Shown here in pieces: positions 17,338-64,000 of a stretch of 64,000 bases of DNA. Within the stretch, counting starts at the first letter, position 1. Each line of letters begins with the position of its first letter. The position numbers and the translations under genes were made by a program. The DNA lies in the NCBI RefSeq assembly GCF_018977255.1, contig NW_024704742.1, positions 64,730,001 through 64,794,000 on the forward strand, read 5' to 3'. The stretch is from Callorhinchus milii (lineage: Eukaryota). Under the pieces are notes generated by a model. The model saw nothing but the letters and a program-made list of their open reading frames with translations. It was not told the origin of the DNA and searched no databases.

Positions 17338-17601
<264 letters not shown>

Positions 17602-18701: not shown

Positions 18702-20165
18702 CAACAACAAAATTACATTTGTGTAGCGCCTTTCACGTCGGGAAGCCATCCCAAGGCGCTGGACAATCAGTATTTTGGACCTGAGCTGAGGATCAGGATC
18801 GGAGAGTGTGGAGGGCGGGGGGGATGCAGGGTGACCGAAGGAACAGTCGAAGAGGAGGCTCTTGAGATGGTTCTTGAAGGAGGCAAGGGAGGGGGCGAGG
18901 CGGAGGGACTGCGGGATGGAGTTGTAGAGGATGGAAGCAGAGTGACTGAAGGCCCACCCGCCAATGGTGGGGTGGGTGAGGCAGTGAACATGAAGCAGGC
19001 CACAGCCTTTTGAGCAGAGGGAGGGCAGGTCGGTACGGGGTTAGGAGGTCGCAGAGGTAGGGGGGAGCAAGGCCATGGAGGGCTTTGAAAATCAGAACCA
19101 GGATCTTGAACTGTATCCTCTGTGTGATGGGAAGACAGTGGAGTCTGGAGAGGATGGGGGTGACAGGGTCACGGAGCCTGGTGCGGGAGAGGGCACGGAC
19201 TGCAGAGTTCTGGATGATCTGCAGCCTATGGAGGGAGGAGTTGGGGAGGCCGACAAGCAGGGAGTTTGCGTAGTCAAGCCTGGATATTACAAATGTGTTT
19301 ATGAGGGTTTCGGAGGCCTGTGGTGTGAGACAGTGGGAGAGCCGGCCGAAGTTGCAGAGGTGGGGGAAGACAGAGCGGGTTAAGGCACGGATGTGGGATA
19401 GAAAGGATAGTTGAGGCTAAAACAAGATGCCAAGGTTCCAGACTGGCTTAGTAAGGTGGAGTGTCAACCATGGATGGTGATGCTAGAGGCGCTGACTGGA
19501 GCCGATCAGGAGAGCCTCGATCTTGTTGATGTGCAGCTGCAGAAAGTTAGCTCTGGTCCAGTGGTCCTGGAGTCGAGGGTGGAGGCAGAGAGGTAGAGTT
19601 GGGTGTCATCAACATACATGTGGATGAAGTTTCAGGCCGCAGTGGCTGAAAGCGCGGCAAACCAATGGTGGAATGGAGGCCACGAAGGACATACAGAAGG
19701 TCAGAGCCAGTCGAGCGGAGGCAGTGGGTTATGGAATAAGCAGGTTGGAGAGGTAGAGAGGTGCCAGGGCATAAAGGGATTTGAAAATGAGTGTGAGGAT
19801 CTTGAAATCGATCCATTCAGCAATAGGGAGCCAGTGGAGCCTGGCTAGAACTGGTGTTATGGGGTTATGGAGTTTAATGCAGGTGAGTATTCGGGCATCA
19901 GAGTTTTGGATCAGCTGGATGCTGCGTATGGTGCAGCTGGGGCAAAGAGGGCATTTAAAAAGTCAAGTTAGGAGGTGATGAACGCATGGGCGAGTGTTTC
20001 GGCCGAGTCCAGTGTATGGTCGGAGGCAGGTAATGTGGTGGAGATGGAGGAAGGCGGTCCTGGTCAGGGACCAGATGTGGGAGAGGAAGTACAGCTGTGA
20101 GTCAAACCTAACACTTAGGTTGCACGCTGGTTCGGTGAGACTGAGGGATAGGCCGGGGAGGTTGA
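18702..20165 (-). mobile_element. L2 LINE, two degraded 3' fragments
   Basis: Remnants of ORF2 C-terminal motifs (YVDDTQLYL-like, QNSA.R.L, LHWLP, SLKSHLK) plus tail GCGCTACACAAATGTAAT(TTG)n. Confidence 0.85.
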
Positions 20166-21262
20166 GGAGGTCAGAGCCACGAGAAAAAGAAAAAGTGTGT
20201 GTCTCTCGTCGACGTTTAGTTGCACTTTAAGTTTGCGCTCACCCAGGACAGTGGATTTTGGAGTGTTGGGCTTATCTATGAGAGGTGACAATGTAACCAT
20301 CTGAATCCAATAACAAGCCTCGAAAAATTATCTTTAATTATATTATTTTATAGCATGATAATGTCAGCTTTTCAGCCCTCCCCCTGGCTTGGCGCCGTGC
20401 TCAGCCACTGTCAAGCTCTCTGGGACAATACCCTGTGTGAGGGGTGCTATATAAATGCAAGTTGTTGTTGTCCTAAGATAGTTGTGATAATTTTCCAGCT
20501 TCCATCTCTTACACTATGGTAGTGAATCAAAATAGGAATGTATAGTAAAAAAATAAGAGCATGTGAGAAACTGTAGTTGTCTTAACGTGTTAAAGCATGG
20601 ACGAGTGCACATGCACATATATGTAGGGAGAGTCCCAACAAAGACAGAACTGAGGTGGACACAGGTCACATTGACATACAATCAGAATATTTTGTATTAA
20701 AAAAAGTCCCTGCAGAGTTTTGCATGTTTTTCACACCATTACTAAACATACAACTGCTTAATTTCCCTTTCAAGCTTATACGTCTAAAAAAAAATTGCAG
20801 ACACTTCCCACGGCTAATTTTAAATGGGTGCAATGAACATGTACTCAAGATGCCATCTGCAGCAATGGCACAGAGCCTACCCCAAGTGAGTGTTCCACAA
20901 AGTCATCCAGACATTGTGCACCCCCTCACTGGTGTCAAACTTTGAGCTCACAGCTCAGCCCGAAACACCAAAGCAGCATTATGTTGTGTGTGGGTGGGGC
21001 GGAAGAAGCACTTTATCATTGGAGCGAATGTCCTTTGGATGAGACGTTAAAATGAGGTGCTGTCTGCATGTTCAGTTGGACATTAACGGATCCCATGACT
21101 TTATTCAAAACAAAAAGGGCATTTCTCCCGCAGAGGATATGATATGGATACAAACCTGAAGTGAATCAGGCAATTGTTAATGTGAGCAACCAACAGGCAT
21201 TCTAAGCGTGTCCAAAGTGCAAGAACTCTATGGGATAATGCTGAGTGCACTTGAGTCATAAG

Positions 21263-22109
21263 CTGGGCCAATAGAAAAGTGCAGCCACAATTTTTCCACG
21301 GAATCCGTTACAAACATCCTCCTCTGCTATAAACCCGTAAAGACACAGTGAGCTCAGCCCCGGGACTCTGTGCGCTGCTGCTGACTATTTATTTGACGCT
21401 ACGGTGGGCTGAGCGGCTCCGGATGTACATGCACAGTCCAGCGCGAGCAAGAAATAAGCTTTGCTCACCCCGAGGCCCCGTTGTTGAGATTGTTTATGTG
21501 TCTCTAACTCCTCTGTATGTGTGTGTGTGAGTGTCTGTGTCTGTCTGTGAGTGTAAGTCTCTCTCTGTCTGTGAGTGTCTGAGTGTGTGTCTGTCTGAGT
21601 ATCCCTGTGTCTGAGTGTGACTAAGAGTGTGTATGTCTCTCTCTCTGTGTCTGTGAGTGTGTGTCTCTCTCTGTCTGAGTGTCTCTGTCTCTGTGAGTGT
21701 CTCTCTGCGTGTGTGTCTCTCTTTGTCTTTACGGGTTTATAGCAGAGGAGGATGCTTGTAACGGATTCCGTGGAAAAATCGTATCTCAGTCTCTGTGAGT
21801 GTGTCTTGATGTGCGTATATGTCCATCTCTCTCTCTCTGTGTCTGTGAGTGTGTCCCACTCTCTATGTGGGTGGCAGACCTCGAGAGGCAGGAGGTGATG
21901 ACTCCTGGAGCCCCGCAGTTGCTCTGGTGTTTCTCACCCCCTAATGTGTTATTTTCTCGTTTTTAGTATTTTTTTTTAATTGAAAAAATGTAGGTTGGCA
22001 GTAAAACGTTCCTCTCAATAGCACCAATCAATTCCCACAATTTTCCGCAAAGCTAACCAAATTTCCCCACAATTTGGGCAAATATTTTCGCAATTTTCTA
22101 TTGGCCCTG
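21263..22109 (+). mobile_element. Non-autonomous hAT DNA transposon (MITE), 847 bp
   Basis: TIRs CTGGGCCAATAGAAAAGTGC / GCAATTTTCTATTGGCCCTG; perfect 8-bp TSD GTCATAAG at 21255-21262 and 22110-22117; internal (TG/TC)n microsatellite. Strand is arbitrary. Confidence 0.85.
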
Positions 22110-23604
22110 GTCATAAGTATCAGTTTGGCTCAGGTGGTAGCACCTCACCACTGAGTCAGAAGATAAGGCACCTGTTTAGATGGACTTTAAAGATCGCAAG
22201 GCACTATTCAAAAAGAGAAGGGAGTTTCTTCCAGTGTCCTGCTCAACAATCCACCAAATAAAATTGTTCATTCGCTTCATGGCTGTTTGTAGGGCATTGC
22301 TGTGTACAAATTAGCTGTGATGTTCGCCCACACTTGCACCATCATTTTCAGTATATCCTGTGTAACACTTTGAGAGTGCCTCCTGATGTGAAGGATGGTG
22401 TATCAAATGTAAGGATTGTTATTATTATTACTAGCCTTTATTTGTGCACTTAGAAAGAAATGTGAATTCCTAAAGCAGAGATGGTACTGATTTAGCAATG
22501 AAATATTTGACTAATTGAAAACATCTTTTTAAATGACACCGCAAGAGAAGAATTTCACGGTCATGTCAAAACCTTGAACAAAACATAAAAGTATCGCAAC
22601 GGACAGCAGACAGAATTGAAATCTTGCATCTGATAATTGTAACTCAATTCTTGCAATCAATAGCCGTGACACTGACAGTCCAAACTACCTTTAAAGAACC
22701 TTAAGAACTTGCAAATTCATAATACCTTACATGATGAGGCGTCTCAAAGAGATTTACAGTAAGAATCTGTTCACCTCCCCACAATAACTCAGGAGTTTTA
22801 TATTATCCATGCAACATTTCCGAGATCCAACCTCATGTTTATGGATCTGCCACAATATACCGTACTGCCCAACCTGCTGCAATGGACTTAATCTGCACAG
22901 CTACTACCTCTTTACACTCAGGAAACAGTCTCACCATGCTCAAGAGCAACCTCAAGCATCCACAGTCATTAAGATGTCTTAACCACGTAATTCACATTAG
23001 TGTTAAGACACACTGCATCTGGTCTTCTGCAATCTGCCTCATGTAGCAAACCTAAGACACTTGAATCCAAGAGATATTGCCACATTCTTCCATTCTGAGC
23101 ATGCCATTATTCCTGCCAAAGCTTGTTCACCAAGTTGCAGAACCCTGGTTCTCAGACCTCACAATATTAAGATGCATCTTGACAAATAGTTTAAAAAGAT
23201 AACTTTGCCCAGTTTCAGTAGTTTCACAAGCTTGTTCCAATAAGCTTCAGGTTTAGACATGAACCATGTGTCAGCTTGGCTCAGTTGGTTGTACTCGCCT
23301 CGAAGTTAGAAGACTGCGAGTTCTAAGGCTCAAGTTGGGACTTGAGCTCATATTCCAGTATGGACACTCCAATCTTGGGATGAACACTACATTTCTGGAA
23401 GTAGGAATCTGAAAGGTGAGACATTAAACCGACGACTCATCTACTTGTTTTCAAGTGGACAGTATCTGTAAAATTTACATTGTTTGTTCCACATCCTATC
23501 CACCTGATCATCGGCGGGCGAATTTTCAGCCACCCTGCCCCACTCTCTCTACAATACTGCCTTGGACAATCCTACTCCTTATCCATATCATAATGGGTCA
23601 TGAG

Positions 23605-24149
23605 CTGGGCTAATAGAAAATTGCAGAAATGTTTGCCCAAAATTGTGCAGTGTTTGATTAAATTTTGCGGAGAATGCAGGTGGCTGATTGGTGCTTTTGA
23701 GAGATGCATATTGTAAAACAACCCAGATTAAAACTATAGGCATACATTTTCTGAACATGTGGTTAAACTTAATTTGAATAATACAGCACTCACCAAGAAC
23801 TCATTGCAGGAGCTCAGGTTAGGCCGGGTGACGAGCAAACAGACGGCAGTGGTCATGCAGCTGGTATTTCTATCGTGAGTCACTCAATAGCGGGCAAAGA
23901 CAATTTCTTTCTCGCACCGCTTCCACAATCCCAACACTGTAGCAGCGTTGAGCAAACAGCACACAGAGGCCCAGGACCTACCTCACTGTGTGTGTACAGG
24001 TTTGTAGCGGGCCAATAGAAAAGTGCGGTGGCACGTTTTCCGCGGAATCCGCCACAAACGTTAAGGGGGGCATTTGTAGCGGAGGGTTGCTTGTAGCGGA
24101 GAGGGGCTGGTTTGTGCCGGGGGGAGGCCGCACTTTTCTGTTGGCCCAG
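23605..24149 (-). mobile_element. Second copy of the same hAT MITE family, opposite orientation, 545 bp
   Basis: TIRs CTGGGCTAATAGAAAATTGC / GCACTTTTCTGTTGGCCCAG; 8-bp TSD GTCATGAG at 23597-23604 and 24150-24157; its left about 95 bp match the reverse complement of the right end of the 21263 copy. Confidence 0.85.
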
Positions 24150-24348
24150 GTCATGAGAGTAGGTCAATCCAACCTGAAAGCATTTCTTTTGAATATGGGT
24201 CAAAATGCCTGAGAAGGTCATAGATACACAACGGATTGTGGCGGTCAGATGGATACTTGGTAAGTAAGGATAGTGAGGCATTATGGAGAAAAGGCAGCTA
24301 AATGGAATGACGATAGAGTTAATGGTGGAGCAGGCTAGACGGGTCCAA

Positions 24349-24610
24349 ATAATAATAATAATCCTTGCATTTGATATCGCGCTTTTCACGTCAGGAGGAC
24401 GTCCCAAAGCGTTTCATAGAACACACTGTAAAGTGAATTGACTGTATATTTGTGGGCGAACGCGGCAGCCAATTGCGCACAGCAATGTCCCATAAACCGT
24501 CGGAGATTGAAAATGACCAAATTATTATTGTTTTTGGTTTTTGGAGGGATTATTATTAGGCGTGTGGAGTAAGGAAACTTGCCCAAGGTTTCGCCCTGCC
24601 TGGAATTGAA
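24349..24610 (-). mobile_element. tRNA-Ala SINE, short subfamily, 5'-truncated, inserted in a CR1 3' end
   Basis: Near-identical to the 7469 and 52429 copies; flanks join into a CR1 terminal motif. Confidence 0.88.
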
Positions 24611-25666
24611 GACCTACTCCTGCATTATTGGTGCTTGTTAGACCTGACCGGCATTCCTCTGGATGAAGAATGAGGAGACCAAGAGTAGAAAACTCAGTGA
24701 AGTTTAGAAAATTGACCCTCAAGAGAGTCAGATCAACAGGTCTCCCAGATCACAGGATACGTCACAGCATTCTAGGATACGTCTTACTATAACAAAATAC
24801 AACTTATTGCATTCGGATTTTTCATAACTCTGAAGGTCAGTAGATTGGGTTCCAGCAGGAATAGCATCACTTAACAGGGACACTGACTTTCTCACCTGGT
24901 CCAAAACGTACAGGCTTGGCCTGAATGAACCTTCTTTGTAACAACTTCATGCAGTTATATAGCACTGTATATATGCAACCTATAGGAGCTGCAGCCTACA
25001 GTTACATCATACAAACCAAGCTATTTTGGGAGGTTTTTTGAAGGCAGGAATTGGTAGCAAGACAGAGCGGGAGGGGTAGTAGGTGTGCAGAACCTTGTGT
25101 TGGAAAGAATGAGCTACGGAAGAAGTTACGATGTCCATTACGAAATATGGATGCTAAAAGCTGTGGTTTAAAAATGCACAACAGATAACAGTGCAAGGTT
25201 AGATTCAGCATTTAAGGAGTTGAAAACAATAAATACTCCCATGTGCTGGTGACCATTGCATTATATGACAGCTATAAACGGATTAAACCTATTGGTATTT
25301 ACAGCAGTACGATCTTGGCTTCATGTAACCAAGGTAACAAGTTAATTATCTTAAGACACAAAAAAGCGTCAATAAAAGAGGTTTGGCGAACGAAAAGGAA
25401 CTTAACAGTTGGGTTGTTTTACGAGGTTAATCAGACCCGTTCTAATATTGTCCTGGAATGTAGTTGTGGAAATTGTGCCATGTTTGTAATGCCCGTATTA
25501 ACAAACAAAACTGTGTGGTCAGACTCAATCCCCCGAACTGGGAAATACGAGCCGGAGCGGAGTGGGGTAGAGGAGGTGCTTAAGGGAAGAGGATGGGAAT
25601 GAGAAGACAAATGTGGGTTCACATTCCAAATGTTACACAGTACAATGCTTTCACACAGTTGAACTA

Positions 25667-26032
25667 TAATAATAATCCTTGCATTTGATAGTGCCTTATC
25701 ATATCGAGACATCTCAAAGCGCTTCACAGAATATACTGTAAAGTGAATTGATTGTATATTTTGTGGGCGAAACGCAGCAGCCAATTGCACACAGCAGTGT
25801 CCCACAAACAGCCTTAGATTGAGTGAACCAATTTTTTTTAGGGGGAGTAGAGGGATTATTATCTCCGAAAAGCGTTTCACCAAATCGACTAACAACCGGG
25901 TTCCCACTTACTGCTAGGTAAACAGAGATGTGTGGAGTAAAGAAACTTGCCTAAAGTTTCACTCTGCTCAGGAATCCAACCCAGATCCTCTTGTTTGTGA
26001 GGCGAGTGTTTTAACACTGAGCTACAGGACTT
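25667..26032 (-). mobile_element. tRNA-Ala SINE, long subfamily
   Basis: Full head-to-tail similarity to the other copies. Confidence 0.85.
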
Positions 26033-27668
26033 CACACAGGACTCTATTTTTGACTATCTAAGCTAGTTTATACAGTCTCTCTTCCTTTAGCTACAGCATT
26101 CGTCAGATCTTCTGTTTCACGTGCCTCTGGGCCTCCATTCACCCCCCGGCCAGGGTGTGGGCCATTGACTAAGCTGAAATTCAGGCCTGTTTCCTTCCCT
26201 TCCCTTCCGGTCCAGCAAAAGTCTGCAATACTATCCCAGCTTCTGAAAAGCAAGTCTGCAAAAACAAACCCAATCCTAATAAAAAGAGAACCAATAATAA
26301 GATAAGCCATATCTTTCTTTTCCTTCCATGTTCCTGTGGATTAATTGCCTGCCTGCCTGGCCTCCAGGGTGGCGTGATTTACAGAGCTCAAAGTGTATAG
26401 AATTGCAGGGGCACACTGACCTCCCATCACTCAGTTGCATTCCTCAGTGTGGCCCTCAGGCACAACACTAAGTTGAGATTGTGGCCTTCGACAAAGAGCT
26501 GAGTAACAGTGGGCTGGGCTCAAATACAATCACGCACAACATACTGCCACTTGGGCAGGGCAGCCTGAGACGACAAATAATAATAATAATCCTTGCAGAT
26601 TTTGCCCAGCCTGGGAATCAAATCCAGGTCCCGTCACTTGGGAGGTGAACACCCTAACCACTGCCCTACGGGACTACATTGCCTGGCACAAGTCAGGGAG
26701 GAGGGAAAACTGGGGAAAGGCCGAAAGGAAGTAAAATCCACACAAATTGTTACACTGCTTAAGTTTCCAACATGATCCCCAATTTAAAATTGCAAATTTT
26801 ATACCAACCTCGGGAAATATTATCCCAATAATACAAACAAGACACGGGCAACTTTGCCCGCCAGATAGCTGATGAGGAAACTGAGGCATGGAGTGACCGC
26901 TACTGGAAGGCGTTACCTGGAGTCTGACTTCGTGAACACACATTTGTATGTCCAGCGCCTGAAATCCACGTTGCTTGGCCTGCAGAGGCAAGAAGCTACT
27001 GCTTAAACTCCACACCTCCAACTGGTGGAACCATCACTCAGTGGGAAGGGACATGTGCCCGAGCTGCGGACAGGAAGATGGTGGCAATGCTCTCACGCCT
27101 TTCATGCTGAGATGTGTTGCTCATCGGGAAGCTCGCAGGGACTTCCTTGTACCATCAATCCACCTAGTGAGGGCTCAAACCCACACTTGTCGGATGTCGA
27201 ACTAGCATCCGGAACACATAGCATCATCAAAATGGTACAATCATAAAGCCAGGTGATTAATAATGCAACCGATTTATAACTGTGCGTCAGTATGGGTCAC
27301 TTAGCATCACTGTCGCCTGCCTCTGGTTGAGAAAGTTTTGGACTTAACCCCGAAAACAGACTGCTGTTGCTGCTCCCTTCTGCCTCTTAGTAGTCAGCTT
27401 CAGTGAACCGGAAAATGGCTGCTCAGCTTCACTGTGTCAGATGTGGCAAAAAAAGAGAAGGCGGCACAAGACGAACTAAAAAAGTCTTCCCCTTTTTTAA
27501 ACAAAAAATAAAACAGTCAGAATTTACAGATTCCGCATGTAAATCTTGAGTTAGGAGACATTAATCTTGTAACTCCAAACTTTACTGGTTGGGACAAATC
27601 ATCATGTACTGATGGATATCATAAATATAGCTATCGCAATCCAACTGAGAGCGCATTTACATTAGCAC

Positions 27669-28176
27669 GACAACAACAAGATTACATTTGTATCGCGCCT
27701 TTCATGTTGGGAGGATGTCCCAAGGCGCTGGACAGAGTACAGCATTTCAGACCCAAGCTGGGGTTGGGGGGGAAGGGAGGGGAGGGGAAGAGGGGTGGCT
27801 GGTGGGATGGTCGAAGAGGAGGGTCTTGAGGCGGGACTTGAAGGAGGCTAAGGAGGGGGCGAGGCGGAGTGACTGGGAGATGGAATTCCAGAGGTTGGGG
27901 GTAGAGTGGCTGAAGGCTCTCCCGCCAAAGGTGGGCTGGGTGGGTCGGGGAACGTGGAGCAGGCCAGAGCCGGCTGAGCGGAGGGAGCGGGCGGGTTGGT
28001 AGGAGGTTAGGAGGTCGCAGAGGTAGGGTGGGGTGAAGTCATGGAGGGCTTTGTAGGTGAGGACCAGCATCTTGAACTGGATCTACTGAAGGATAGGAAG
28101 CTAGTGGAGTCGGGCGAGAGTGGGGGAGATGGGGTCACGGATTTTGGTGCGGGAGAGGACACGGGCTGCAGAGTTC
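27669..28176 (-). mobile_element. L2 LINE 3' fragment, relatively young
   Basis: NSAARVLSRTKIRDPISPTLARLH ... LVLTYKALHDFTPPYLCDLL ... GGRAFSHSTPNLWNSI ... FKSRLKTLLF, plus L2 tail. Confidence 0.92.
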
Positions 28177-30865
28177 CGCCGGTCCTTACGAAACTCAGGA
28201 AATAAAGCTAGAGGCTGGATCATCGATTGCGAGATGGATTTGCAGGACATGAGGGGAAGTGGACTGAGAGACTGATCTGGGCTATAAACCATCAGAGGTA
28301 GAGAACATGAACTGGCAAGGCAGCTACAATATTTAATGGATGGAGCAGTGATCTCAGCCTTACAGGTATCTGGCAGAACATATACCCCAAGAGAGGTACT
28401 TTATTCACAAACTACAGCCCTCTCAAGCCAAACTAATTTACTAGCTAAGTGCCCTAGTTTTCCTCCCCCATCCTGGCTCACCATATTGCCCCTGAATCAA
28501 TCCATGCCCCCATGAGCAAAGCAAACAGAGGCACATCTAACACTCATCCAATCATAACACATCTTAATTATACCTTACATTGCATATACAGTATCGTAGT
28601 TGTTAAACGATAACTGATAATATGATTGATAATGTCAAAGTACTGTGCATTTTTGTCACATCAACCTCGTTGGTATTGCAGTTGCCCATTATTAGTTTTG
28701 TTCTTTTTGGTCTGTTCATTTTATTGGTTTGATTGCTACCATTTATAATAATACTTCCACTTGGTACAGAGCCTTTCACATCATGAGGACGTCCCAAAGT
28801 ACTTCATGGGAGACACTTGTAAAGTGGAGTGACTGTTTTGTGGGAAAAACGCTACAGATTATTTTTTACCAGATTTTAAAAAAAACTAGGCAGGGCTGGG
28901 CCGTAAGCAGCGGGCATCATCAAACTAGGTGTCTGTGGTCCACTCCCTGAATAACAGGCAGACATGAACCTGGAATTTCCATGTATATTTGGGATGCACG
29001 AAATGCTTAGCTTGGTTTGGATACTCTTAAGTACGGTGATGGGTTTCCGCATGTGTCAGACACCAGCCTGTCCATTCTAACACAGTTGGAATCCAGTCTA
29101 CTTTAGGGAGGGAGGGGAGATGGGTGTCAAGGGGCCATCAGTCAAGTCAGTTAAGCAGCTGGGGGCATGCCAAGAGTTGTACTAAAGTGAATCCAGCTGC
29201 TGTAGAAACCACCCCGCAACAAAGAGCACAGGGAAGGCCAGGCAGTATTGCACAACCACTTCAGGAAATGGTTTCTGCAATTTTTTATTTTGGTCTTCGG
29301 CATTACTGACATGCGGAAACCCACTCAACGTACAAAAGGAAGAGTTCCGCATATGTACTGAAAGTAAATTTCCATTTGTCTGCTGTGAAGCGTTCAACTC
29401 TCTCTCCCCGGAGCGCTGCCCTGAACCATATTTAATTCCAGAGGATTTAGGCACAGATTGGGAAGAGCAATGGCTTGGGGACCACAGTGTCTGTTGGGGT
29501 AATGCTCATGTTTACAAGTTAAAGCCACATAGCCTGTCATTGCAAACACTGGCATGATTCCAGATGCTTGTCCAGCTAGGACCACCTAACACTCTAATAA
29601 TAAGAATCCCATATGCAACCTTGGCGTCAGGTTCGACCCCCAATTGTCCTTCCTCCCCCACATCCGGTCCCTCACCAGCACCACCTTCTTCCACCTCCGA
29701 CGCATCGCCCATCTTTTCGACCGTGCCTTTGGTCACCTTCCTCCCCTCCCCCTGGCTCGGCCCCAGGATTCGTTACTGTGAAGCGCTCTGAGATGCCGTC
29801 CAGCATGGAGGGCGCTATATAAATACAAGTTGTTTTTGAATAATACTTGCATTTGATATCCAACAACAGCAAAATTACATTTGTATAAGTGTCTTTCACG
29901 TTGGGAGGACGTCTCAAGGAGCTTCACGGGATATAGTGTAAAATGGATTGACTTTATATTTTGTGAGCAAAACGCGGCAGCCAGTTTGCGCGCAGCAGTG
30001 TCCCACAAACAGTCGTGGAGTGAGTGCCCAGTGTGTGTTCACCCTAGGGTTAACAGGAACTGAAAAAAATGAATCCGAGCTCCCAGAGACTGGTCTGCTC
30101 TGCCAGGTTCTGCTGATAAGCCTGGCGGGCTGGCCCATCATCAAAAGTGCCTTAAAAGTACAGGGGATCTGTTTGGTTCAGGAATTAAGACTACCGAGAC
30201 CACCACAGAAGACTGACTCAATTGCACTATTCCATTGTCAAGCACGTCACTTTGGAGCTATTGAACCATAGACATTTACAGCAAAGAAGAAGGCCATCCG
30301 GCCTGCCGTGTCTGTGCTGGTTCTTTTAAAGAGCAATCCTTCCTGTTCCACTTACCTGGCCTTCCCTGAACCTCTGTAATTTCTTCTTTTTTAGATACCT
30401 AACTAGTTTTGAAAGCCGACACAGCGCCCAAAGAGATCCTGTTTAGCTTACCTTCCCCCTTTCCCCAGAGAATAGTCACTAGTTGGTTATTAGACATCTG
30501 ACATGCCCAGGTTTGAGCCATTGCTAGGTGCAAATCAGACACCAGGAACTCCTTATAATAATAATCCTTGCATTTATCACGTGTCAAGATGTCTCAAAGT
30601 GCTTCACAGAATATACTGCAAAATGAATTGACTATTTTGTAGGCAAAATGTGGCAGCCAATTGTTCACAGCAATGTCTCACAAAGTTATGGATTGAGTGA
30701 CCAAATGATAATTCTATTTTCTTATAATACCAGGAACTCATTATAATAATAACCCTTGCATTTAATAAGGTGCCTTATCACGTTGGTGAGACACCTCAAA
30801 CCGCTTCACAGAATATACTGTAAATTGACTGTATTTTGTGAGCAAAACGCAGCAGCCAATTGCGC

Positions 30866-31352
30866 AACAAGATTACATTTGTATAGCGCCTTTCATGTCG
30901 GGAGGATGTCCAGGCACTGGACAGACTATAGCATTTCAGACCCAAGCTGGGGTTGGGGGGGAAAGGGAGGGAAGGCAAAGGGGAGTGGCCGATGGCATGG
31001 TCGAAGAGGAGGGTCTTGAGGTGGGACTTGAAGGAGGCTAAGGAGGGGGTGAGGCGGAGTGACTGGGGGATGGAATTCCAGAGGTTGGGGGCAGAGTGGC
31101 TGAAGGCTCTCCGCCAATGGAGGGCACGTGGTGTCGGGGGACATGGAGCAGGTCAGAGTCGGCTGAGCGGAGGGAACGGGCGAGTTGGTAGGGAGTTAGG
31201 AGGTCACAGAGGTAGGGTGGGGCGAGGCCATGGAGAGCTTTGTAGGTGAGGACCAGGATCTTGAACTGGATCCTCTGAAGGACAGGGAGCCAATAGTCGG
31301 GCGAGAGTGGGGGAGATGGGGTCACGGAGTTTGGTTCGGGAGAGGACACGGG
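30866..31352 (-). mobile_element. L2 LINE 3' fragment inserted in a SINE
   Basis: WLPVLQRIQFKILVLTYKALHGLAPPYLCDLL; highly similar to the 27669 copy. Confidence 0.92.
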
Positions 31353-32151
31353 TAAACAGTTTCTCACAAACAATCGTGGATTGAGTGAACAAATTATTCT
31401 GATAATTATTGTTTGTGAGCTACACAGCGATCAGTACAAAATGCACAAAGAGACTTTGCCTTCACAATGCTGAGCAACAGGTCAACATAAATGCAACACC
31501 ACTTGGTTCATGGGTTATAGGGTTCACACGTTGCAGATTTATGGTATTTGATGGATAGGCAATCTTTGGCCTCTCTGTATAAAAGCGAGAAGTTACAGTT
31601 GGAGGAGTGCTTTCACTATGAAACACAACACCAACCACCCTCTCCTAACTTTCCACCGTGTCATATTCGATTACGCAACTCCTACAAAGAAACAGATTAT
31701 TTCAGCAAAGCGCAGCTTCAATCAACGTCCCCACATATTCTGCAAGAACAACTGTTCGCTCGGCTAATACCCCAAACCAGCATCATCTGGCAAATTATTG
31801 CAATAATAGTAGTGACTGTGTAGCTGATCTTATTCACATTATAGATACATATGCAAAATCAGTCACGTAAGCCAACCTGTGGGATTCCCCAAAATACAGA
31901 GCTGTATTAAAGGTCCTAATAAAGTTAACACTAGGATGACTGTTTCAGTGTAAATCAATGAGTCACCACAGCACTCACTATACTCCAAGTATAATAGTTA
32001 TTAAATATTTAAACACACGCATCGTACGTGTGGACTCTGACACGTCTCAGGAGAATCAGGGACGGCGAACTTATTGATCGGGCAGAAATTGTGGCCCACT
32101 ACATCGGAATCACTTGCTCTGCTAATGGGAGAGGTTTGTGTTTCTGGGTAA

Positions 32152-32309
32152 GCACTCGGCCAAGGGGTGGGGGCACTCGGCCAAGGGGTGGGGGCACTCG
32201 GCCAAGGGGTGGGGGCACTCGGCCAAGGGGTGGGGGCACTCGGCCAAGGGGTGGGGGCACTCGGCCAAGGGGGGGGGGCACTCGCCAAGGGGGGGGGGCA
32301 CTCGGCCAA
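32152..32309. repeat. 21-bp minisatellite (GCACTCGGCCAAGGGGTGGGG), about 7.5 copies
   Basis: Direct tandem units read from the sequence. Confidence 0.95.
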
Positions 32310-32442
32310 AGAGAAGGGAGAGCACCCGCTAAAAGGGGGAGGGGGGAGAGTGAGGGAGGGGGGTACGACTGAGCTGGAACCACATGGCTTCCCCTGAGAG
32401 CTCAGATACAGAGAGAGGAAAATCAGCACGACCTTGGTTATA

Positions 32443-33316
32443 GCCCCCCCCCCCCACACACACACAGCGCCCCCACGCACCCGCACAGCCCCCCGCACAC
32501 GCACGCACAGCCCCCCCTGCACATGCGCGCACAGCCCGCACACGCGCGCACAGCCCGCACACAGCCCCCCCGCACACAGCCCCCCCGCGCACAGCCCCAC
32601 GCCCCCCGCACAGCCCCCCCCCACGCCCACAGCCCCCCCACACACAGCCCCCCCACACAAAGCCCCCCCACACACACGCACGCACAGCCCCCCCGGCACA
32701 TGCGCGTACAGCCCGCACATGTGCGCACAGCCCCCCCGCCACAGCCCCCCCCCCCGCACACAGCCCCCCCCCGCACACAGCCCCCCCCCGCACTCAGCCC
32801 CCCCCCCCGCACACAGCCCCCCCACCCCGCACACAGCCCCCCCCACCCCGCACACAGCCCCCCCCACCCCGCACACAGCCCCCCACCCCGCACACAGCCC
32901 CACCCCCCGCACACAGCCCCCCCCGCACACAGCCCCCCCCCGCACTCAGCCCCCCCACCCCGCACACAGCCCCCCCCACCCCGCACACAGCCCCACCCCG
33001 CACACAGCCCCCCCACCCCGCACACAGCCCCCCCACCCCGCACACAGCCCCCCCACCCCGCACACAGCCCCCCCCCCGCACACAGCCCCCCCACCCCGCG
33101 CACAGCCCCCCCCCCCCCCGCGCACAGCCCCCCCCCCCCCCGCGCACAGCCCCCCCCCGCACACAGCCCCTCCCACCCCGCACAGCCCCCCCCACCCCGC
33201 ACACAGCCCCCCCCCCGCACACAGCCCCCCCACCCCGCACACAGCCCCCCCCCCCCCGCACACAGCCCCCCCCCTCCCCACACAGCCCCCCCCCGCACAC
33301 AGCCCCCCCACAGCCT
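32443..33316. repeat. C-rich minisatellite (GCACACAGCCCCCC-type), G-rich on the GRK sense strand
   Basis: Dozens of imperfect GCACACAG(C)n units. Confidence 0.95.
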
Positions 33317-33571
33317 GTAAGTGCTATTGTACCTACAGTCACACACTGTGTGTGTATGTGCACATGTATCAGTGCCCCTCCACTGTGAGGCCCCACAAAC
33401 AGCACTGCACCGCACCACTGCCCTCCACAACCCACACCACTGCCCCGGGCTCCGGCTGCCGGGGGGGGGGGAGAGGGGAGGGGAGTGGGGGTAGAAGTGG
33501 GAGAGGGAGGAGAGGAAGGGGTGGGGGGAGAGGGGAGGTGGGGGCTGGTGCCGGGGTTACAGGGAGTGTTG

Positions 33572-33846
33572 CTCCCTGTGTGCCCTGTGTGTGAGTTGCC
33601 CCCCCGCTGCCCTGTGTGCCCTGTGTGCCCTGTGTGTGAGTTGCCCCCCCGCTGCCCTGTGTGCCCTGTGTGTGAGTTGCCCCCCCGCTGCCCTGTGTGC
33701 CCTGTGTGCCCTGTGTGTGAGTTGCCCCCGCCTGCCCTGTGTGCCCTGTGTGTGAGTTGCCCCCCCGCTGCCCTGTGTGCCCTGTGTGTGAGTTGCCCCC
33801 CCGCTGCCCTGTGTGCCCTGTGTGTGAGTTGCCCCCCCGCTGCCCG
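33572..33846. repeat. Compound minisatellite (GCCCTGTGT)n-GTGAGTTGCCCCCCCGCT abutting the GRK exon-1 donor
   Basis: Direct tandem repeats; they generate the artefactual CPVCELPPR ORFs. Confidence 0.95.
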
Positions 33847-33852
33847 CCTTAC

Positions 33853-33904
33853 CCTCTCTGGCTTTCAGTAGCACTGTGTTGGCGACGATGTTTTCCAGCT
33901 CCAT
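33853..33904 (-). CDS. GRK4: G protein-coupled receptor kinase (GRK4/5/6 subfamily), coding exon 1
   Basis: ATG at 33904 gives MELENIVANTVLLKARE(G), the characteristic GRK4/5/6 N-terminus; 52 coding nt followed by a GTAAG donor (33852-33848), the known exon-1 size and phase. The subfamily is near certain; GRK4 rather than GRK5/6 rests on the neighbouring NOP14. Confidence 0.85.
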
Positions 33905-33932
33905 CCTATCGGCGCTGTGTGGGACCCGGAGT

Positions 33933-34199: not shown

Positions 34200-34764
34200 C
34201 CTCCTCCCTCCCTCCCTCCCTCTCTCTCTCTCTCTCCCTCCCTCCTCCTCCCTCTCTCTCTCTCCCCCTCCTTCCTCTCTCCCTCCTCCTCCCTCTCTCT
34301 CTCTCTCCCTCTTCTCTCTCTCCCTCCTCTCTCTGTCTCCCCCTCCCTCTTCTCTCTCCCTCTCTCTCTCCCCCTCCCTCTCTCTCTCCCCCTCCCTCCT
34401 CCTCTCTCTCTCTCTCCCTCTTCTCTCTCTCCCTCCTCTCTCTGTCTCCCCCTCCCTCTTCTCTCTCCTCCTTCTCTCTCCCTCTCCCTCCTCCTCTCTC
34501 TCTCTCTCCCTCTTCTCTCTCCCCTCTTCCTCTCTCTCTCTCTCTCCCCCTCCCTCCTCTCTCTCTCCTCTTCTCTCTCCCCTCCTTCCTCTCTCCCTCC
34601 TCCTCTTCTCTCTCTCCCTCCCTCCTCTCTCCCTCCTCCTCCTCTCTCTCCCTCCCTCCCTCCTCTCTCCTCCCCTCTGGGAAGCTTTGCTTCACTTTGT
34701 CCTTCTCCCTGACAATAACCTGCAACTCACTTCTCTGTCTCTCTCTTTCTCTCTCTCTCTCTCT
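34200..34764. repeat. Polypyrimidine/polypurine (CT/CCT) tract
   Basis: About 480 nt of almost exclusively C/T on the plus strand (34200-34678), with a short CT run to 34764. Confidence 0.95.
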
Positions 34765-54031: not shown

Positions 54032-54091
54032 CAAAAGGATGACAGAGAGATCTGAAGGCAGAATCAGGCTGTGCAGGAAGCTACAGTAAAG

Positions 54092-54545
54092 ATGAGGAGC
54101 ACCTCTTACTCCAAGCAGACCATGTCCACCAGCTCGGCTTGCAGGAGTGGGCTGAGGCTGCATAGCCACTCACCCTCCCGTTCCATGGATACCCGTGGGC
54201 GGGCTGGCTACCAGGGGCCAGCGATCTCTAGCGGCCCCCTGCAAACCCGACCCAACGAGAAGCAAGAGATGCAGCAGCTCAACAGCTTCTTCGCCGGCTA
54301 CATTGAGAAGGTGAGGAGCCTGGAGCAGCGGAACTCGATGTTGAGGCTGCAGCTGGAGTCCCTACAGGGCAAGGCCATGGGCGTGCAAGATCTGGAGGAT
54401 GAGTTCCAACCCCGCTTCAAAGAGCTGAAGGATCTGATCGAGCGCCTGACCCACGAGAAAGGAGTGGCCGAGATAGAGAAGGGCAACATCCAGGAGGAGG
54501 TTGAACTCTGGACTCAGAAATGGCAGGAAGAGCTGGAGCTCAAAG
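54092..54545 (+). CDS. Cytoplasmic intermediate filament protein (type III/IV-like), exon 1: head, coil 1A, start of coil 1B
   Basis: ATG at 54092; Ser/Arg-rich head, then NEKQEMQQLNSFFAGYIEKVRSLEQRN (coil 1A); ends AAA G|gtaaag, phase 1. Confidence 0.92.
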
Positions 54546-54599
54546 GTAAAGGGTTGGCTTTTTATTGGGAAGAAAGAGTGTGTGTGTGTGTGTACTTAT

Positions 54600-55062
54600 T
54601 AATGGTAATCCCTGCATTTGATATGGTGCCTCATCACGTTGAGACATCTTAAAGCGCTTCACAGGATATACTGTAAAGTGGATTGACTGTGTATTTTGTG
54701 GGCAAAGCAAGGCAGTCAATTGCGCACAGCCAATTACCACAAGCAGTCGTGGATTGAGTGAATGTTTTGTTAAAGCGATTTTTACCACCGGAAAGTAATC
54801 TGCCAATCGACTAATCAACCAGGTCCTTAGTTACTGCTAGTTAAACAAAGGCGTGTGGAGTAAGGAAACTTGCCTAAGGTTTCACTCTACCCGGGTTCTC
54901 TCTCTCGCGAGACAAATGCTCTAATCAATACGCTACAGGACTCCATGATAAGATACTAAATCAAAATATACAGTCAATTCACTTTACAGAATATTCTGTG
55001 AAGCGCTTTGAGAAGTCTCGACAACGTAATAAGGCGCTATATCAAATACAAGCGTTATTATT
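54600..55062. mobile_element. Two oppositely oriented SINEs in IF intron 1 (54600-54944 minus, full length; 54964-55062 plus, tail only)
   Basis: Direct similarity to the SINE family. Confidence 0.85.
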
Positions 55063-55143
55063 AGAAGTAAAATTTAGACTAGGGTGGTATTATCCTACAT
55101 TGTACAAAAATAAGAAATAAAGCGTTCTCTTTCACCCTTAAAG

Positions 55144-55812
55144 ATGAAGCCGAGAGGATCCTGAGGGAATTCCGGAAGGATGTGGACGACGCCACCCTGC
55201 AGAAAGTCGAACTGGAGAGAAAGATTGAGCAGCTGCTGGCGGAGATCGCCTTCCTGAAGAAAGTGCATGACGAGGAAGTGGCTGAACTGCTTAGGCAGAT
55301 CAAAGAGTCTAAGGTCTCTGTGGAGATGGCCTCGGAACGCCCAGACCTCGCCGCTGCCCTGCGTTCCGTCCGGCAGCAGATGGAAGAGATCTCCGCCAAG
55401 AACCTCAAGGACGCCGAGGTGTGGTACAAGAACAAATACGATGCCATGAAGCACAACGCCGTCAAGTATGACAACCAGATTGTTGACCTGAAGGAGGACA
55501 TCAACACCCAAATCCAGGAGATCCAAACCCTGCAGGATGAAATTGAGCGCTTGAGGAATAGTAACCTGTACCTGGAGAACAAACTGGAGGAGATGGAGGG
55601 CAATCATCTGGAGGCGGTGGCAAACCTTCAGGGCATCATCACCCAGCTGGAGTGCCAACTCCGAGAAACCAAAGCCGAGATGTTGCGGTACTTGCAGGAT
55701 TATCAGGATCTGCTCAATGTCAAACTGAAGCTGGACGCTGAGATCGCTACCTATAGGAAGCTACTGGAGGCAGAAGAGATGAGGCTGGGGCTGTCTTCAG
55801 AGACAACTACAG
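55144..55812 (+). CDS. Intermediate filament protein, exon 2: coil 1B to the end of coil 2B
   Basis: Pyrimidine tract plus AAG acceptor, in frame with exon 1. Encodes DEAERILREFRKDVDDATL..., PDLAAALR, YQDLLNVKLKLDAEIATYRKLLEAEE (IF rod-end signature); ends ACA G|gtaggt, phase 1. Confidence 0.93.
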
Positions 55813-56069
55813 GTAGGTTCACAGTCTTCCCTTTGCAGGCACATGTTTCTGGTTATACTTGCTCCTCATTCTCCAGAGGATTCACAATCCCCATGGTAGA
55901 TATTGAACACCAGAAACAGATCCTCCCTGAACCTCGAAGGTAATCAATCAAAAAAATTCTGAAATCATCATCCACCTTCGTTACACTATTGCACCTGGCC
56001 TCCTTCCCTTCATTGAGCACATTCATTGTCCCAACAACATGGAATTCATTAATATTTCAGTTAATTTTT

Positions 56070-56510
56070 TTTGGTCAACCCATCACCATGCTTAAGAGTA
56101 TCCAAACCAAGCTGAGATTTCCAAGCATCCCACCTACACGTGGAGATTCCAGAGATAGATTGTTGGAATGGAATCGCACTCTCTCCCTGGAGAGAGACAT
56201 CCTGTTTACCTAATTCCAGATTGTATAAGGCGCAGGTTGGCAAGAGCCAAGGCTTGGGGACCTCAGAGTGTGTGTTGGGGTACTGCTGAAATCTAACCAG
56301 CTAAAAGAGTATAGCTTGCCATTGATTATCGCTGTCTTGCAAACTTTCCTGCTGCTTTCCAGCTTGGAGCACCCTACCCATTAGGGCTTTGACTTGCAGG
56401 ATTAACAGGAGCTGAGTGGGATGATTCCATCCCCAGTGACTGGTCTGCCCTTCCAAGCCCTGCCGATGTGCCAGGCTGGCTGTGCTGTCATCAGTAGTGG
56501 CCTGGAATAG
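56070..56510 (-). repeat. Most complete copy of an unclassified ancient interspersed repeat (consensus about 500 bp)
   Basis: Overlapping homologous pieces at about 6590-6875, 10720-10943, 28968-29070, 30050-30220(-), 41190-41412, 46452-46700 and 49703-49958. Confidence 0.75.
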
Positions 56511-58892
56511 TGCATTACTCAGTTAATTCTTGCGTTTGACTTCCCAAGAAAGGTGTCCCCTACGTAGATTTCATCAGTTAATCTGGACCACGCAAGTCTT
56601 GGGGACTAGTTGGAGATCATTTAAAATGTAATCCACTTTGATGCACATTTCTTTGAAACACAGCTCCATGTATTTAACAACACCTAATGGATGATACCAG
56701 CACTTAACAAAATATTCAAAAATAATAGAAGTGAATAAAATTGATTATCCTTTTTTTGGCTGTTTGTGGAACATGGCTATGCGCAAATTGGCTGCCGTGT
56801 TTGCCTATAAATACAGTCACTACACTTTACAGTAAAATCCTGTAAAGCCCTTTGAGACATTTCAAAGACGTTATATCAAATGCAAAGATTATTATTTTCT
56901 GGGGATAATAATTCCTTGAAATAATAATAAATTAGTCACCTCAATCCACGACTGTTTGTGGGACGCCCCGTACACAATTGGCTGCCGGGTTTTGCCCACA
57001 AAATATTCAGTCAATTCACTTCACAGTATATTCTATGAAGTGCTTTGAAGCGTCTCAAAGACATGTTAAGGCACTATATCAAATGCTAGGATTATTATTA
57101 TTATTTGAGAAGTCTTGGCAATTTGATAAGCTACTATACAAAATGCATGGATTATTATAGATGTGCTGTATATGTTCTTTGTTACCTTTGGTGGTGAATT
57201 GGAACCATGTATGAATGAAGTTATGGGTTTTCACTTTGATAGAGCAATATAATGGGGTAAAGCTTTGACACAGAGTATGAAATACTAGTTTGACTTCTCC
57301 CACCTAAAAAACACCTCTGGGCTACAAAATGCTGTTTATTACGGTGACTGTAAAGTCTAATGATTTTCATCCACCCTCTTTATCTAACTTTGAATCTCAT
57401 CTGAAAACGCTTTGGTTGCGGCTATAGTCACCTCCCTTCCTCCCTTGTTCATTGTCTATATAAATGCAAGTTATTGTTATTTCACCCATCTGGAGGGGGG
57501 GGTTGGGAGGGCAACAGTGAATGAGACTCAATCAGTTTAATTTTCCTCCACTTGCTAACTGTGGGACATTGAGCAGCCCTTTTCATATAAAACATATGGA
57601 AGTACCTGGTACATTCAATCTATCTAAAGGAAAACTAATTTCTGAAAGAGATTACTGCTGAAGAAAGCACTGAATGCAAAGAATTAACTGAGAAAGTAAC
57701 AAATTCCATGCTGGAAAGGGAATGTGCTCAATGAAGGCAAGGAGGCCGGAGTTCAATAGTTTAATGAAGATGGATGAGGATTTGGGAATGTTTTTGATTG
57801 ATTACCTTTGGGTTTTAGGGAGGATCTGTTTCTGGTGTCCAATATCTTGCCATTGGGACTGAGTCTGTTCTTTTGGTAATAGAGCTACTAACTTTCCTCC
57901 TCTGTGTTTCAGGTGATTAATGGATTATTTCACCTTGGGCCAACCAGAGAAATGAGTGCTCCTTTCAATAGTTTGGAATAGTTGAGAGCATGAACTTGCT
58001 GGCTCTGTGGTGATAGGAGAGGCTAGCAAAGTGGGCTCAGGAGGCATGGGGAATGAGGCAAGCAGAAGAGAAAGTGAGGGAACACAGTTGGCACAGTTGT
58101 GTAGAGGGATGAGAAAAAGGCTAGTCTTTCAGAAATACCTTCAATTTTATAGGTTTGCATTGCCATATGCAGCTCATGGAACTCCAAACTAAACAACAAC
58201 AAACAGCATCAAACTATACACACAGGAGTTGCCAGCCTGGCTCAGTTGGTAGCTCTCTCGCTTCTGAGACAGAAGGTTGTAGGTTCAAGCCCCATGTTGG
58301 GATTTAGAACTCAAAATCTAGGCTGTCAATCATCCCAGTACTGGGGTGTGCTGCTGTTGGAGCTATCGAAAAATTTAACCAAGGTCCCGCCTACCTGTTC
58401 AAGTGGATGTTAAACATCCCATACCACTATTCGAAAAGTGTCCTGGCCAACAGTCCACCAAATAAAATTGGCTTTCATTTCATGCTCTGTGGCACATTAC
58501 TGTGCTCAAAATTAACTGGAACTTTCACCCTCAAAGTCAGACATTACACTTTACAGTTGACCCCTATGAAGCTCTTTGAAACATCCTCTTGCACTATACC
58601 ATAGGTTTCGTTACAGGTCAAACCTTGTAACAAAGTACATTTCTGTAATTACAGCCCTATCTCAAACCATTGTACATCTGCCACTGGTGTTGATAATATA
58701 ATAATCCTTGCATTTGATATAGTGCCTTATCACGTCATTGAAACGGCTCAAAGAACTGCACAGAATATACTGTAAAGTGAATTGACTGTATATTTTGTGG
58801 GCGAAACGTGGAGGTCAATTGCACACAGTAGTGTCCCACAAACAATTATTATCCCCAGATACCCTGACTGACTGGTACCTTTTATTTTTCAG

Positions 58893-58978
58893 AACATGGC
58901 TCTTCTGTTACAAGAGAGAAAACTCAATCGGTCAAACGTAAAGTGGAAACCCACACATCTCGCAGCGTGACTGCGTGA
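58893..58978 (+). CDS. Intermediate filament protein, probable terminal exon (tail EHGSSVTREKTQSVKRKVETHTSRSVTA*)
   Basis: Acceptor ttttatttttcag, phase-1 compatible; S/T-rich tail with VKRKVET resembling the type III IKTVET tail motif; TGA at 58976-58978; AATAAA at 59211 and 59301. Full protein 402 aa. Confidence 0.7.
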
Positions 58979-59210
58979 GGAGTTTCAGGAACTAGGAAAT
59001 CAATCACAGAACACACGTCAAATGAAGCAATAGCCCATCCAGTGATTAACTGTCACTTGAGCTGAAGTGATCTTGATTAGATAAGTTACATTTTAACAGT
59101 GAGTAAACAAACAAGTGCTAAATTCTGTGGTCTGGTTCTAAAATGTATCAGCCTGAGCATCAGAAAAATGAACGCAACAGCAGTAAGTAAGGAGTACTGG
59201 TGGCTGAATT

Positions 59211-59216
59211 AATAAA
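59211..59216 (+). terminator. Polyadenylation signal of the IF gene
   Basis: AATAAA about 230 nt after the predicted stop codon; a second one at 59301. Confidence 0.5.
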
Positions 59217-59644
59217 GCTTAACATGACAGCACAATTGCACAGTGGTCATTTGTAATGTTATTTTGGGAATTTGCAGCGCTGCAAATCTATTTTTCCACA
59301 AATAAATCAGACCACCAGATATCACCACATGACTCAACTGGGTACAGTCCCAACTCTTAACAGCAAACTATTTAGGTATGAAGCCCAACATATCCCATCC
59401 AAGGAGCCTTTGAAAACTACACATTTTTAAAAACTTCACAAAACATAAATTGATTGAAATAATAACTTCAATTTTAGATAAATGATGAAAATGAATTCCT
59501 CATAATCCTGACAGTTTGCTATGAAGTGGGGCACACTTTTCATTGTCCCATAAGTAGTTCAAATGCCTGAGTTATGAGGTGGCTCTAAAACACACTGCCA
59601 TTTTGCCTAAAGCTGGAGTGTAGCAATAACAGCTGGACAAAGGG

Positions 59645-63000: not shown

Positions 63001-63100
63001 TTAAGTTTTCCGCTTCTGTCTCTTCATGGCCTTCCATTCACCCTCCTGCGTGGCCAGATTTTGGAACAAGGATTTCACCTTCCTCTTCCTCTCCGCATCC
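63001..63100 (-). CDS. NOP14: Nucleolar protein 14, last coding exon
   Basis: tttgtttcag acceptor, then (G)DAERKRKVKSLFQNLATQEGEWKAMKRQKRKT* ending in TAA at 63003-63001; matches the NOP14 C-terminus as recalled (DAERKRKVKQLFNSLATQEGEWKALKRKKFKK). Confidence 0.92.
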
Positions 63101-64000
63101 CTGAAACAAAGTAAACCAAGAATGTGACCAAACAGGGCAGTAAAAGCATTTAGTCACCACTTGACTCTACCGTTGATGTGCTAAATGTTTCATTAAAATG
63201 GCGAGCTGCACCATAGCCATAATTAGGAGATAGGGTTAAAAACATAGCTGCCACAAAGCGGTCTTAAACCTTTAGGTGGACAGTGTAAAGAGAGCGTGAT
63301 GAACTTTGAGACAATGGTATTGCTGGAATTATCTGAAAGGAAATTCAGCTGGGAAATGTGGGAAGAGATTGTTCGACTAGATATTTCTTCCCTCTTGCAT
63401 CTCAGTTAAGTGAAACTAATGTACTTATTCTCTTAAAGGAAGTCTTTGTATGTGTGTGAATGGTTGAGTCAAGTCTCAGATTAATTTAGGCCTTCAAATT
63501 TTGGCAGTCTAGAGCTCTAGAGTGACTTATCAGGTTGTCCACAAAAACAGATCTTTGTCACTTCTATTAAAATGGGGATAACAAATATCCAGGCGGGATT
63601 GCAAATGAATGATCTAAAAAAAAGGGTTCTGATTAAATCTGAAACCAACTGAGTACACATTACAAATGATTTAAGACCATCAAGCACATGTGAAAATTAG
63701 ATTAGTTTTGAAATCACTTCCCAGTATCTTTCGCGTTACAATTACATACAGCATTATGTTGCAATTTAGATCCTCCTGCCAGCGAATAAATCTTAGTACA
63801 CTCCAATCCTGTGAGACAGGTTTGATCACTGTTTCAACATTACAACAACTTGCATTTATATAGGGCCCTTAACACAGGATAGCATTCTCTGAGCACTGAG
63901 TTAAAAAAAATTCTGTAGTTCAATTGGTATTCAGGAATTTTATGCTACAATATAATCTAAATCCTGTTCAGATCAGGAAGTAAAATGCAATCTCACAAAC

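Follow-up and report, generated by a model that had tools for sequence, protein, structure and literature searches.

Type III intermediate filament (IF) genes carry a phase-1 tail intron, and the rod introns of vimentin, which lie at codons 143, 164, 196, 250, 292, and 365 in the numbering used here, match at five positions those of L019, the outgroup reference described below. Type IV genes have their rod-end intron inside YR/KLLEGE (a slash within or before a motif marks the intron). The late coil-2 intron positions of type IV genes are common to type VI genes (PMC2075511), and the exon sizes given for tanabin, 804, 125, and 65 bp (PMC2075511), would place a phase-1 intron shortly past the rod, provided that counting of exon 1 begins at the start codon. 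IF proteins assemble from coiled-coil dimers through tetramers into filaments, according to PMC8733776, which contains no mention of "vimr." The window analyzed here, a 64,000-nucleotide (nt) stretch of the Callorhinchus milii genome (NW_024704742.1, positions 64,730,001 to 64,794,000), contains a three-exon IF gene that, judged by its sequence, is an ortholog of vimr1 (vimentin-related 1) and is already annotated and named. In the joint explanation that we favor, with a probability of about 0.7, vimr1 is a distinct and ancient IF lineage that forms filaments, lost its rod introns, and was itself lost in amniotes.

The coding exons of C. milii vimr1 (454, 669, and 86 nt, stop included; Table 1) form a frame of 1209 nt and 402 amino acids (aa) with no internal stop, and the translation is identical to RefSeq XP_007903453 (P0001), labelled "vimentin." The three-exon model of the earlier note was therefore exact, and its two phase-1 introns, one in coil 1B and one after the rod with coil 2 unbroken, agree with the RNA junctions. 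Both introns are GT..AG, at LELK/DEAE (codon 152) and SETTT/EHG (codon 375), and intron 2 contains high-copy repeats. Four sequencing runs (X1, X3, X5, and X8), whose RNA status is a guess, none of the matching runs being recorded as RNA, were aligned to the gene; two others, X12 and X13, contained almost none of its sequence words, which says nothing about tissue. Run X1 yielded a single 1500-nt contig across 54074-59230 that skips exactly 598 + 3080 nt at GT..AG and ends 14 nt past an AATAAA. The first joint was also seen in run X5. In runs X3 and X8 the sequence continues through both introns and neither joint occurs; run X3, guessed to be RNA, behaves in this respect as DNA would. Since the spliced GT..AG joints are not present in the read-through runs, vimr1 is transcribed. 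No joint inside exon 2 was found among the 15 joints listed, out of these and 1277 weaker ones, and the X1 contig crosses exon 2 unbroken. The UniRef model of the locus, A0A4W3JMD0 (P0305), which supplies the name "Vimentin-related 1," reads through intron 2 to give 417 aa, and the RNA contig supports the spliced 402-aa form. The contigs differ at only two coding sites, both synonymous. C. milii vimr1 is a real, expressed, and conserved gene, and no second IF locus was seen within the window.

The Pfam Filament domain runs contiguously across both large exons: exon 1 covers model positions 1-98 (E 2.5e-19), and exon 2 continues with 101-313 (E 6e-60). The protein consists of a head (aa 1-54), a 312-residue rod, and a 36-residue tail; the head is basic and Ser/Thr-rich (7 R, 18 S+T, 1 acidic), coil 1B is short, lacking the 42-residue lamin insert, and there is no lamin tail domain. 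The product of exon 2 aligns with vimentin residues 198-413 over 216 residues without a gap (E 5.8e-53), and a comparison with the ESM Atlas returned generic IF clusters only. The rod-end consensus motifs are modified in C. milii, with LNSF for LNDR and TYRKLLEAEE for TYRKLLEGEE. At the LNDR arginine site, all 10 cartilaginous-fish copies (C. milii, P0003, P0004, P0006-P0008, P0011, P0014, P0016, and P0079) have F, C, L, or I, and R or K is found in 151/151 other vimr1 orthologs and 114/121 other IF representatives. Residue 62 is Q in the same 10 copies and E in 130 of the 151 other orthologs; a salt bridge covarying with the lost arginine is a mere lead, the site being variable in other IFs (E in 11/121). 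Mutations at this arginine are known from disease: in GFAP, R79C and R79H halt elongation with a dominant effect (PMC9635275), and K14 R125H leads to epidermolysis bullosa simplex (PMC8443778). The SYRR-type (SSYRR) head motif is found in none of 159 vimr1 heads versus 24 of 113 mixed other IF heads.

Four rod trees (144, 69, 45, and 32 rows) were built from rows hand-picked from search matches; several of the type III rows are incomplete, labels were in some cases given by recognition, and labelled type VI, lamin, and syncoilin rows are absent. vimr1 formed one clade in all four, with lamprey basal and a branching order broadly matching the species phylogeny, and with support of 100/99 in the 69- and 45-row trees and 100/100 in the 32-row tree. 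Recovery as a clade of its own marks vimr1, on the rod sequences, as an ancient vertebrate IF lineage separate from ngs and from types III and IV, and the independent lineage proposed in the earlier note is upheld. In approximately unbiased (AU) tests, joining vimr1 to vimentin (p-AU 0.006), to desmin (0.001), or to all type III rows (0.041) was rejected, and joining it to type IV was not (0.138); these values are guides only because the groups were defined after the first trees had been viewed. vimr1 is nested neither inside type IV, which is monophyletic without it (support 98-100), nor inside ngs, likewise monophyletic (100/100 in the 69-, 45-, and 32-row trees). The ngs clade (P0151, P0184, P0187, P0189, P0193, P0208, P0229, P0369, and P0477) unites ngs, zgc:172323, Xenopus "desmin gene 2," and a hagfish protein at 100/100; divergent turtle fragments also score best to it. 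LG+G4 trees place vimr1 as sister to ngs (97/89 and 95/89), and vimr1, ngs, and type IV group against type III with 95/88 (45 rows), 93/89 (32 rows, C20), and 91/59 (69 rows). Either ngs/chordostatin or type IV is thus a possible sister. The C. milii rod is 58-66% identical to vimr1 orthologs of jawed vertebrates and 53.5% identical to that of lamprey; outside the orthologs, identity is 47% to alpha-internexin, 44% to desmin, 40% to NF-L and NF-M, and 33-35% to ngs.

The best 120 of 1063 matches to exon 2 are, self match aside, close relatives (56-74% identity) from sharks, skate, sturgeon, bichir, gar, teleosts, coelacanth, lungfish, salamanders, and frogs. Most of those listed are labelled vimentin-like or desmin-like, and the name vimr1 is carried by matches from coelacanth, bichir, Echeneis, and Scleropages. 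A 50%-cluster library supplied a lamprey member. Among the best 120 of 1007 matches to an axolotl query (8000 candidates scored), the named taxa are fish and amphibians only, Xenopus included. The ortholog range among the matches listed therefore comprises at least lamprey, sharks, bony fish, coelacanth, lungfish, and amphibians, and no named amniote vimr1 appears in the best 120 of either search. A further set of 148 representatives and 119 short IF proteins (267 in all), in which birds and reptiles are well represented, contains four proteins that score best to vimr1, namely, that of lamprey and three fish-like ones. On these searches, a loss of vimr1 in amniotes is quite probable, as the earlier note had surmised for mammals. 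The novelty that the note claimed unless a named ortholog with the same intron positions turned up does not stand, since vimr1 is such an ortholog and teleost DNA has the same two introns. No publication on the phylogeny or gene structure of vimr1 was found in the library searched, and Zimek 2003 (Fugu IF), Tong 2013 (ngs), or supplements may already cover it; the gene is apparently uncharacterized in print, and "undescribed" is provisional. Several near-identical copies in Alosa and Engraulis (P0029, P0030, P0046, P0317, P0337, and P0340) suggest local duplication in clupeiforms; two other proteins, P0183 and P0206, resemble degenerate copies from fish.

Genomic references were metagenome contigs (19 loci out of 183 pattern matches). 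Four clupeid-like loci, L002-L005, have intron 1 at the identical codon and phase (291-294 nt), a phase-1 intron 2 of 346 nt seven codons past the rod, and an unbroken coil 2 (4/4 loci). In addition, three shark isoforms and two catfish-like open reading frames (ORFs) show a switch of sequence exactly at the exon-2 start (/DEAE or /EEAE). The outgroup reference, L019 (L019:5873-13840), is an intron-rich type III-like IF gene of invertebrate-chordate type with eight rod introns, at 74/0, 111/2, 143/2, 196/0, 250/0, 292/0, 322/0 (codon/phase), and the rod end, where the intron falls at EES/R, codon 365, phase 2. The earlier note had placed the type III rod-end intron inside TYR/KLLEGE, which is corrected by the position in L019 and vimentin. 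None of the eight is at 152/1, and a phase-1 intron precedes the KTIETKDG tail exon. None of the six type III rod introns (five of their positions are seen in L019) is present in C. milii vimr1, and the late coil-2 introns of type IV have no counterpart, exon 2 being unbroken in the RNA contig. The earlier statement that type III and type IV positions are unused is thus confirmed, and intron mapping puts intron 1 at a position of its own, which matches no reference position and is specific to the lineage. Since L019 has eight rod introns and none at 152/1, the intron-poor rod is derived; ngs gene-model artefacts, which also suggest an intron-rich ngs lineage, point the same way. These artefacts, from short ORFs, hint at introns at YIEK/V, /DV, and HSE/E. 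Intron 2 lies ten codons past the rod in phase 1, like the L019 tail intron, and may be the ancestral phase-1 tail intron, kept and not gained.

Perch-like fishes apparently lost both introns secondarily. L001:1005-2141 is a percomorph-like vimr1 read as a single frame of 378 codons that lacks introns and the exon-3 tail; its contig (5126 nt) was judged genomic by length and flanking sequence. Downstream of the stop codon, a degenerate exon 3 is hinted at by no more than a faint resemblance and is not claimed. Of the unnamed vimr1 ORFs (30 of 32 examined), 20 span the intron-1 site and 10 begin at exon 2. Fourteen of the 20 are on contigs of at least 3 kb, all nearest to acanthomorphs, and for the 10 the nearest fish is catfish in seven cases and carp, herring, or squirrelfish in one case each.

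Under the explanation favored here, an intron-rich type III/ngs-like ancestor would have lost all of its rod introns, most simply in one cDNA-mediated event, after which one new phase-1 intron would have been gained in coil 1B. The tail intron would about equally likely have been kept or gained, both introns would later have disappeared in perch-like fishes, and the gene itself would probably have been lost in amniotes. Measured against the retrogene criterion that all parental introns be lost, the rod introns are all absent, and the phase-1 tail intron resembles the ancestral one. The retrocopy with later intron gain suggested in the earlier note is accordingly plausible for the rod and intron 1; because intron 2 is ancestral-like in phase and position and may be ancestral, a full retrocopy origin is unproven. 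No single parent gene is identifiable in the trees, and no A-tract was seen past the 3' untranslated region (UTR), such an event being too old for traces.

Several points weigh against this explanation. The sister group is unstable, as no order among vimr1, ngs, and type IV is resolved under the C20 mixture, and the loss of the ngs sister position there means that long-branch pull is possible. L002-L005 are near-identical and count as one lineage, and the intron sites compared come from chimaera and teleost DNA. The exon-3 tail profile scores 10.9 against type III tails, which carry a KTxETRDG motif, and the 95th percentile of shuffled sequences is 12.7, so that the match is no better than shuffles. 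The amniote absence is drawn from the best 120 of about 1000 matches per search. The zebrafish protein P0367 is labelled "vimentin," its tie to the name vimr1 running through UniRef names in other species. Finally, the missing SYRR-type head motif and the loss of the LNDR arginine in sharks and chimaera mean that self-assembly is not a given.

An alternative, which we consider unlikely, is that vimr1 and the type IV neurofilament genes share an intron-less, mRNA-derived ancestor from which each gained introns, so that both vimr1 introns would be new; it amounts to the retrocopy suggestion of the earlier note in its strong form. It is consistent with the unrejected grouping of vimr1 with type IV, with the joint placement of type IV, ngs, and vimr1 against type III, and with alpha-internexin having the highest rod identity among the nonorthologs tested. 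The lamprey protein, which ends 5 residues past the rod and has no exon-3 tail, fits as well, and it has been proposed in print that type IV arose by retrotransposition (cited in PMC2075511). That proposal was challenged by a fish gene that mixes type I-III and type IV introns (PMC2075511). The LG+G4 trees, moreover, favor ngs, which looks intron-rich, as the sister, and intron 2 matches the ancestral tail intron in phase and rough position; poly-A or target-site traces were not seen, and none are expected.

It is improbable that vimr1 is a fast-evolving vimentin or desmin paralog, that is, a true type III gene whose introns were lost singly. The RefSeq and UniRef labels ("vimentin," "vimentin-like," and "desmin-like") say as much, the short tail has a VET motif that recalls type III tails, intron loss recurs within vimr1 in perch-like fishes, and type III as a whole is excluded only at p-AU 0.041. 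Vimentin is also the best match among solved structures, which is weak evidence because type IV and ngs chains were absent from the PDB matches. Groupings with vimentin and with desmin are nevertheless rejected at 0.006 and 0.001, and neither a type III rod intron nor an SYRR-type head motif is found.

The vimr1 protein is expected to form parallel coiled-coil dimers and would assemble into 10-nm filaments, either by itself or, more probably, together with partners of vimentin or desmin type. It would act in a restricted set of cells, which in zebrafish includes tailbud mesodermal progenitors during the epithelial-mesenchymal transition (EMT). In PMC13268175, zebrafish vimr1 changes by +2.45 log2 from neuromesodermal progenitors (NMPs) to mesodermal progenitors and by -3.4 log2 from the progenitor zone (PZ) to the posterior presomitic mesoderm (PSM), so that in these data expression peaks in tailbud mesodermal progenitors; repression by tbx16 is also reported (PMC13268175). 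vimr2, a candidate relative, is described as an EMT marker in NMPs (bioRxiv 2023.11.21.568176). The arginine loss in cartilaginous fishes is likely to be answered by coassembly with a type III partner or by compensation elsewhere in the protein. That these copies are decaying, or act as nonpolymerizing or dominant-negative filament modifiers, is very improbable, for although F, C, L, or I replaces the arginine in all 10 and GFAP R79C and R79H stop elongation dominantly at the same site (PMC9635275), chimaera has an intact and spliced frame, the shark and skate copies are full-length, 58-66% rod identity is kept, and both contig coding differences, at two sites, are synonymous. A bolder synthesis, which we regard as tentative and rather doubtful, would make vimr1 an unrecognized IF class as old as the split between lamprey and jawed vertebrates, born from mRNA, possibly in the event that founded the neurofilaments, with a role in mesodermal progenitors at EMT in both fish and amphibians, loss in amniotes, and tolerated loss of the LNDR arginine. 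If it were true, cartilaginous-fish vimr1 would be a natural model of compensation at a hotspot of Alexander disease and epidermolysis bullosa.

The vimr1 gene lies between NOP14 and a GRK4/5/6-subfamily gene (Table 1). The last NOP14 exon is ~4 kb downstream, with its 3' end facing vimr1, and the GRK gene starts 20 kb upstream, head to head with vimr1. GRK exon 2 scores best to GRK5 (48 bits) versus GRK4 (35 bits), and the identity "GRK4" therefore rests on linkage only. Both neighbors are on the same strand in C. milii, whereas human NOP14 and GRK4 are head to head; the arrangements thus differ, which suggests a local inversion in one lineage. Of the NOP14-GRK4 junction named in the earlier note, the neighbors are right in kind, the assignment to GRK4 is by linkage, and the orientation is unlike that of the human pair. 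L001-L005, which cover 3-6 kb only, gave no NOP14 or GRK exon match, and none of 94 chosen ORFs in the GRK-NOP14 interval reached the Pfam cutoff, a weak test in which the known NOP14 and GRK exons failed too. A GC-rich block of simple repeats and minisatellites surrounds GRK exon 1 (32000-34800), and SINE/LINE-like DNA repeated within the window makes up about 34% of it.

Table 1. Features of vimr1 and its neighbors, in window positions
Feature	Position	Strand	Description
vimr1 exon 1	54074..54545	+	At least 18 nt of 5' UTR, ATG at 54092 (coding 54092-54545), head, coil 1A, linker, start of coil 1B
Coil-1A motif QLNSF	54275..54289	+	Phe66 (54287-54289) at the usual LNDR arginine site; no alternative letter in X1 contig
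vimr1 intron 1	54546..55143	+	598 nt, GT..AG, phase 1 in codon D152; lineage-specific position
vimr1 exon 2	55144..55812	+	669 nt, all coding: remaining coil 1B, L12, entire coil 2, 9 tail codons
Rod-end motif TYRKLLEAEE	55749..55778	+	aa 354-363; Ala for usual Gly; no intron within or directly after
vimr1 intron 2	55813..58892	+	3080 nt, GT..AG, phase 1 in codon E375; ten codons past rod
vimr1 exon 3	58893..59230	+	28 tail codons (coding 58893-58978), TGA at 58976-58978, 3' UTR, AATAAA at 59211; RNA contig ends at 59230
NOP14 last coding exon	63001..63102	-	Match to human NOP14 at 63004-63102 (E 1.9e-10); tail to tail with vimr1
GRK4/5/6-subfamily gene, first two coding exons	17422..33904	-	ATG at 33904; exon 2 at about 17422-17523

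With vimr1, the type III/IV family gains a separate pan-anamniote branch, one that is misnamed vimentin or desmin in hundreds of annotations. The gene offers a fresh test case of whether intron-poor filament genes arose through mRNA, and its cartilaginous-fish copies hold natural substitutions at a coil-1A disease hotspot, which are open to in vitro tests. The surprise is limited, since vimr1 was already annotated and named.

Among the known systems, the vimr1 of zebrafish, coelacanth, bichir, and others is the same gene, with intron sites common to teleost DNA; within it, chimaera and shark copies stand out by the missing coil-1A arginine, and percomorph-like copies look intronless and tail-less. 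Type III genes (vimentin, desmin, GFAP, and peripherin) resemble vimr1 in the short rod of vertebrate type, which aligns with that of vimentin over 216 residues without a gap, in the basic Ser/Thr-rich head and short tail, and in the phase-1 tail intron. However, vimr1 falls outside their clade, with 44% rod identity to desmin, 0/6 of their rod introns, and no SYRR-type head. Type IV (alpha-internexin, NF-L, and NF-M) and type VI (nestin, tanabin, and synemin) genes share an intron-poor structure with a long unbroken rod exon, and type IV is a possible sister (p-AU 0.138). vimr1 differs from type IV in lacking both late coil-2 introns and a long acidic tail, in having a coil-1B intron, and in its place outside the type IV clade (98-100), in trees with no type VI rows. 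The ngs/chordostatin lineage, with zgc:172323 and Xenopus "desmin gene 2," is, like vimr1, an orphan and mostly anamniote lineage that reaches jawless fish (hagfish row), is also a possible sister, and has an SPSP motif in its heads as vimr1 does. It differs by its rod (33-35% identity), by keeping the SSYRR head, by appearing intron-rich on indirect evidence, and by the existence of turtle fragments, of which none were seen for vimr1.

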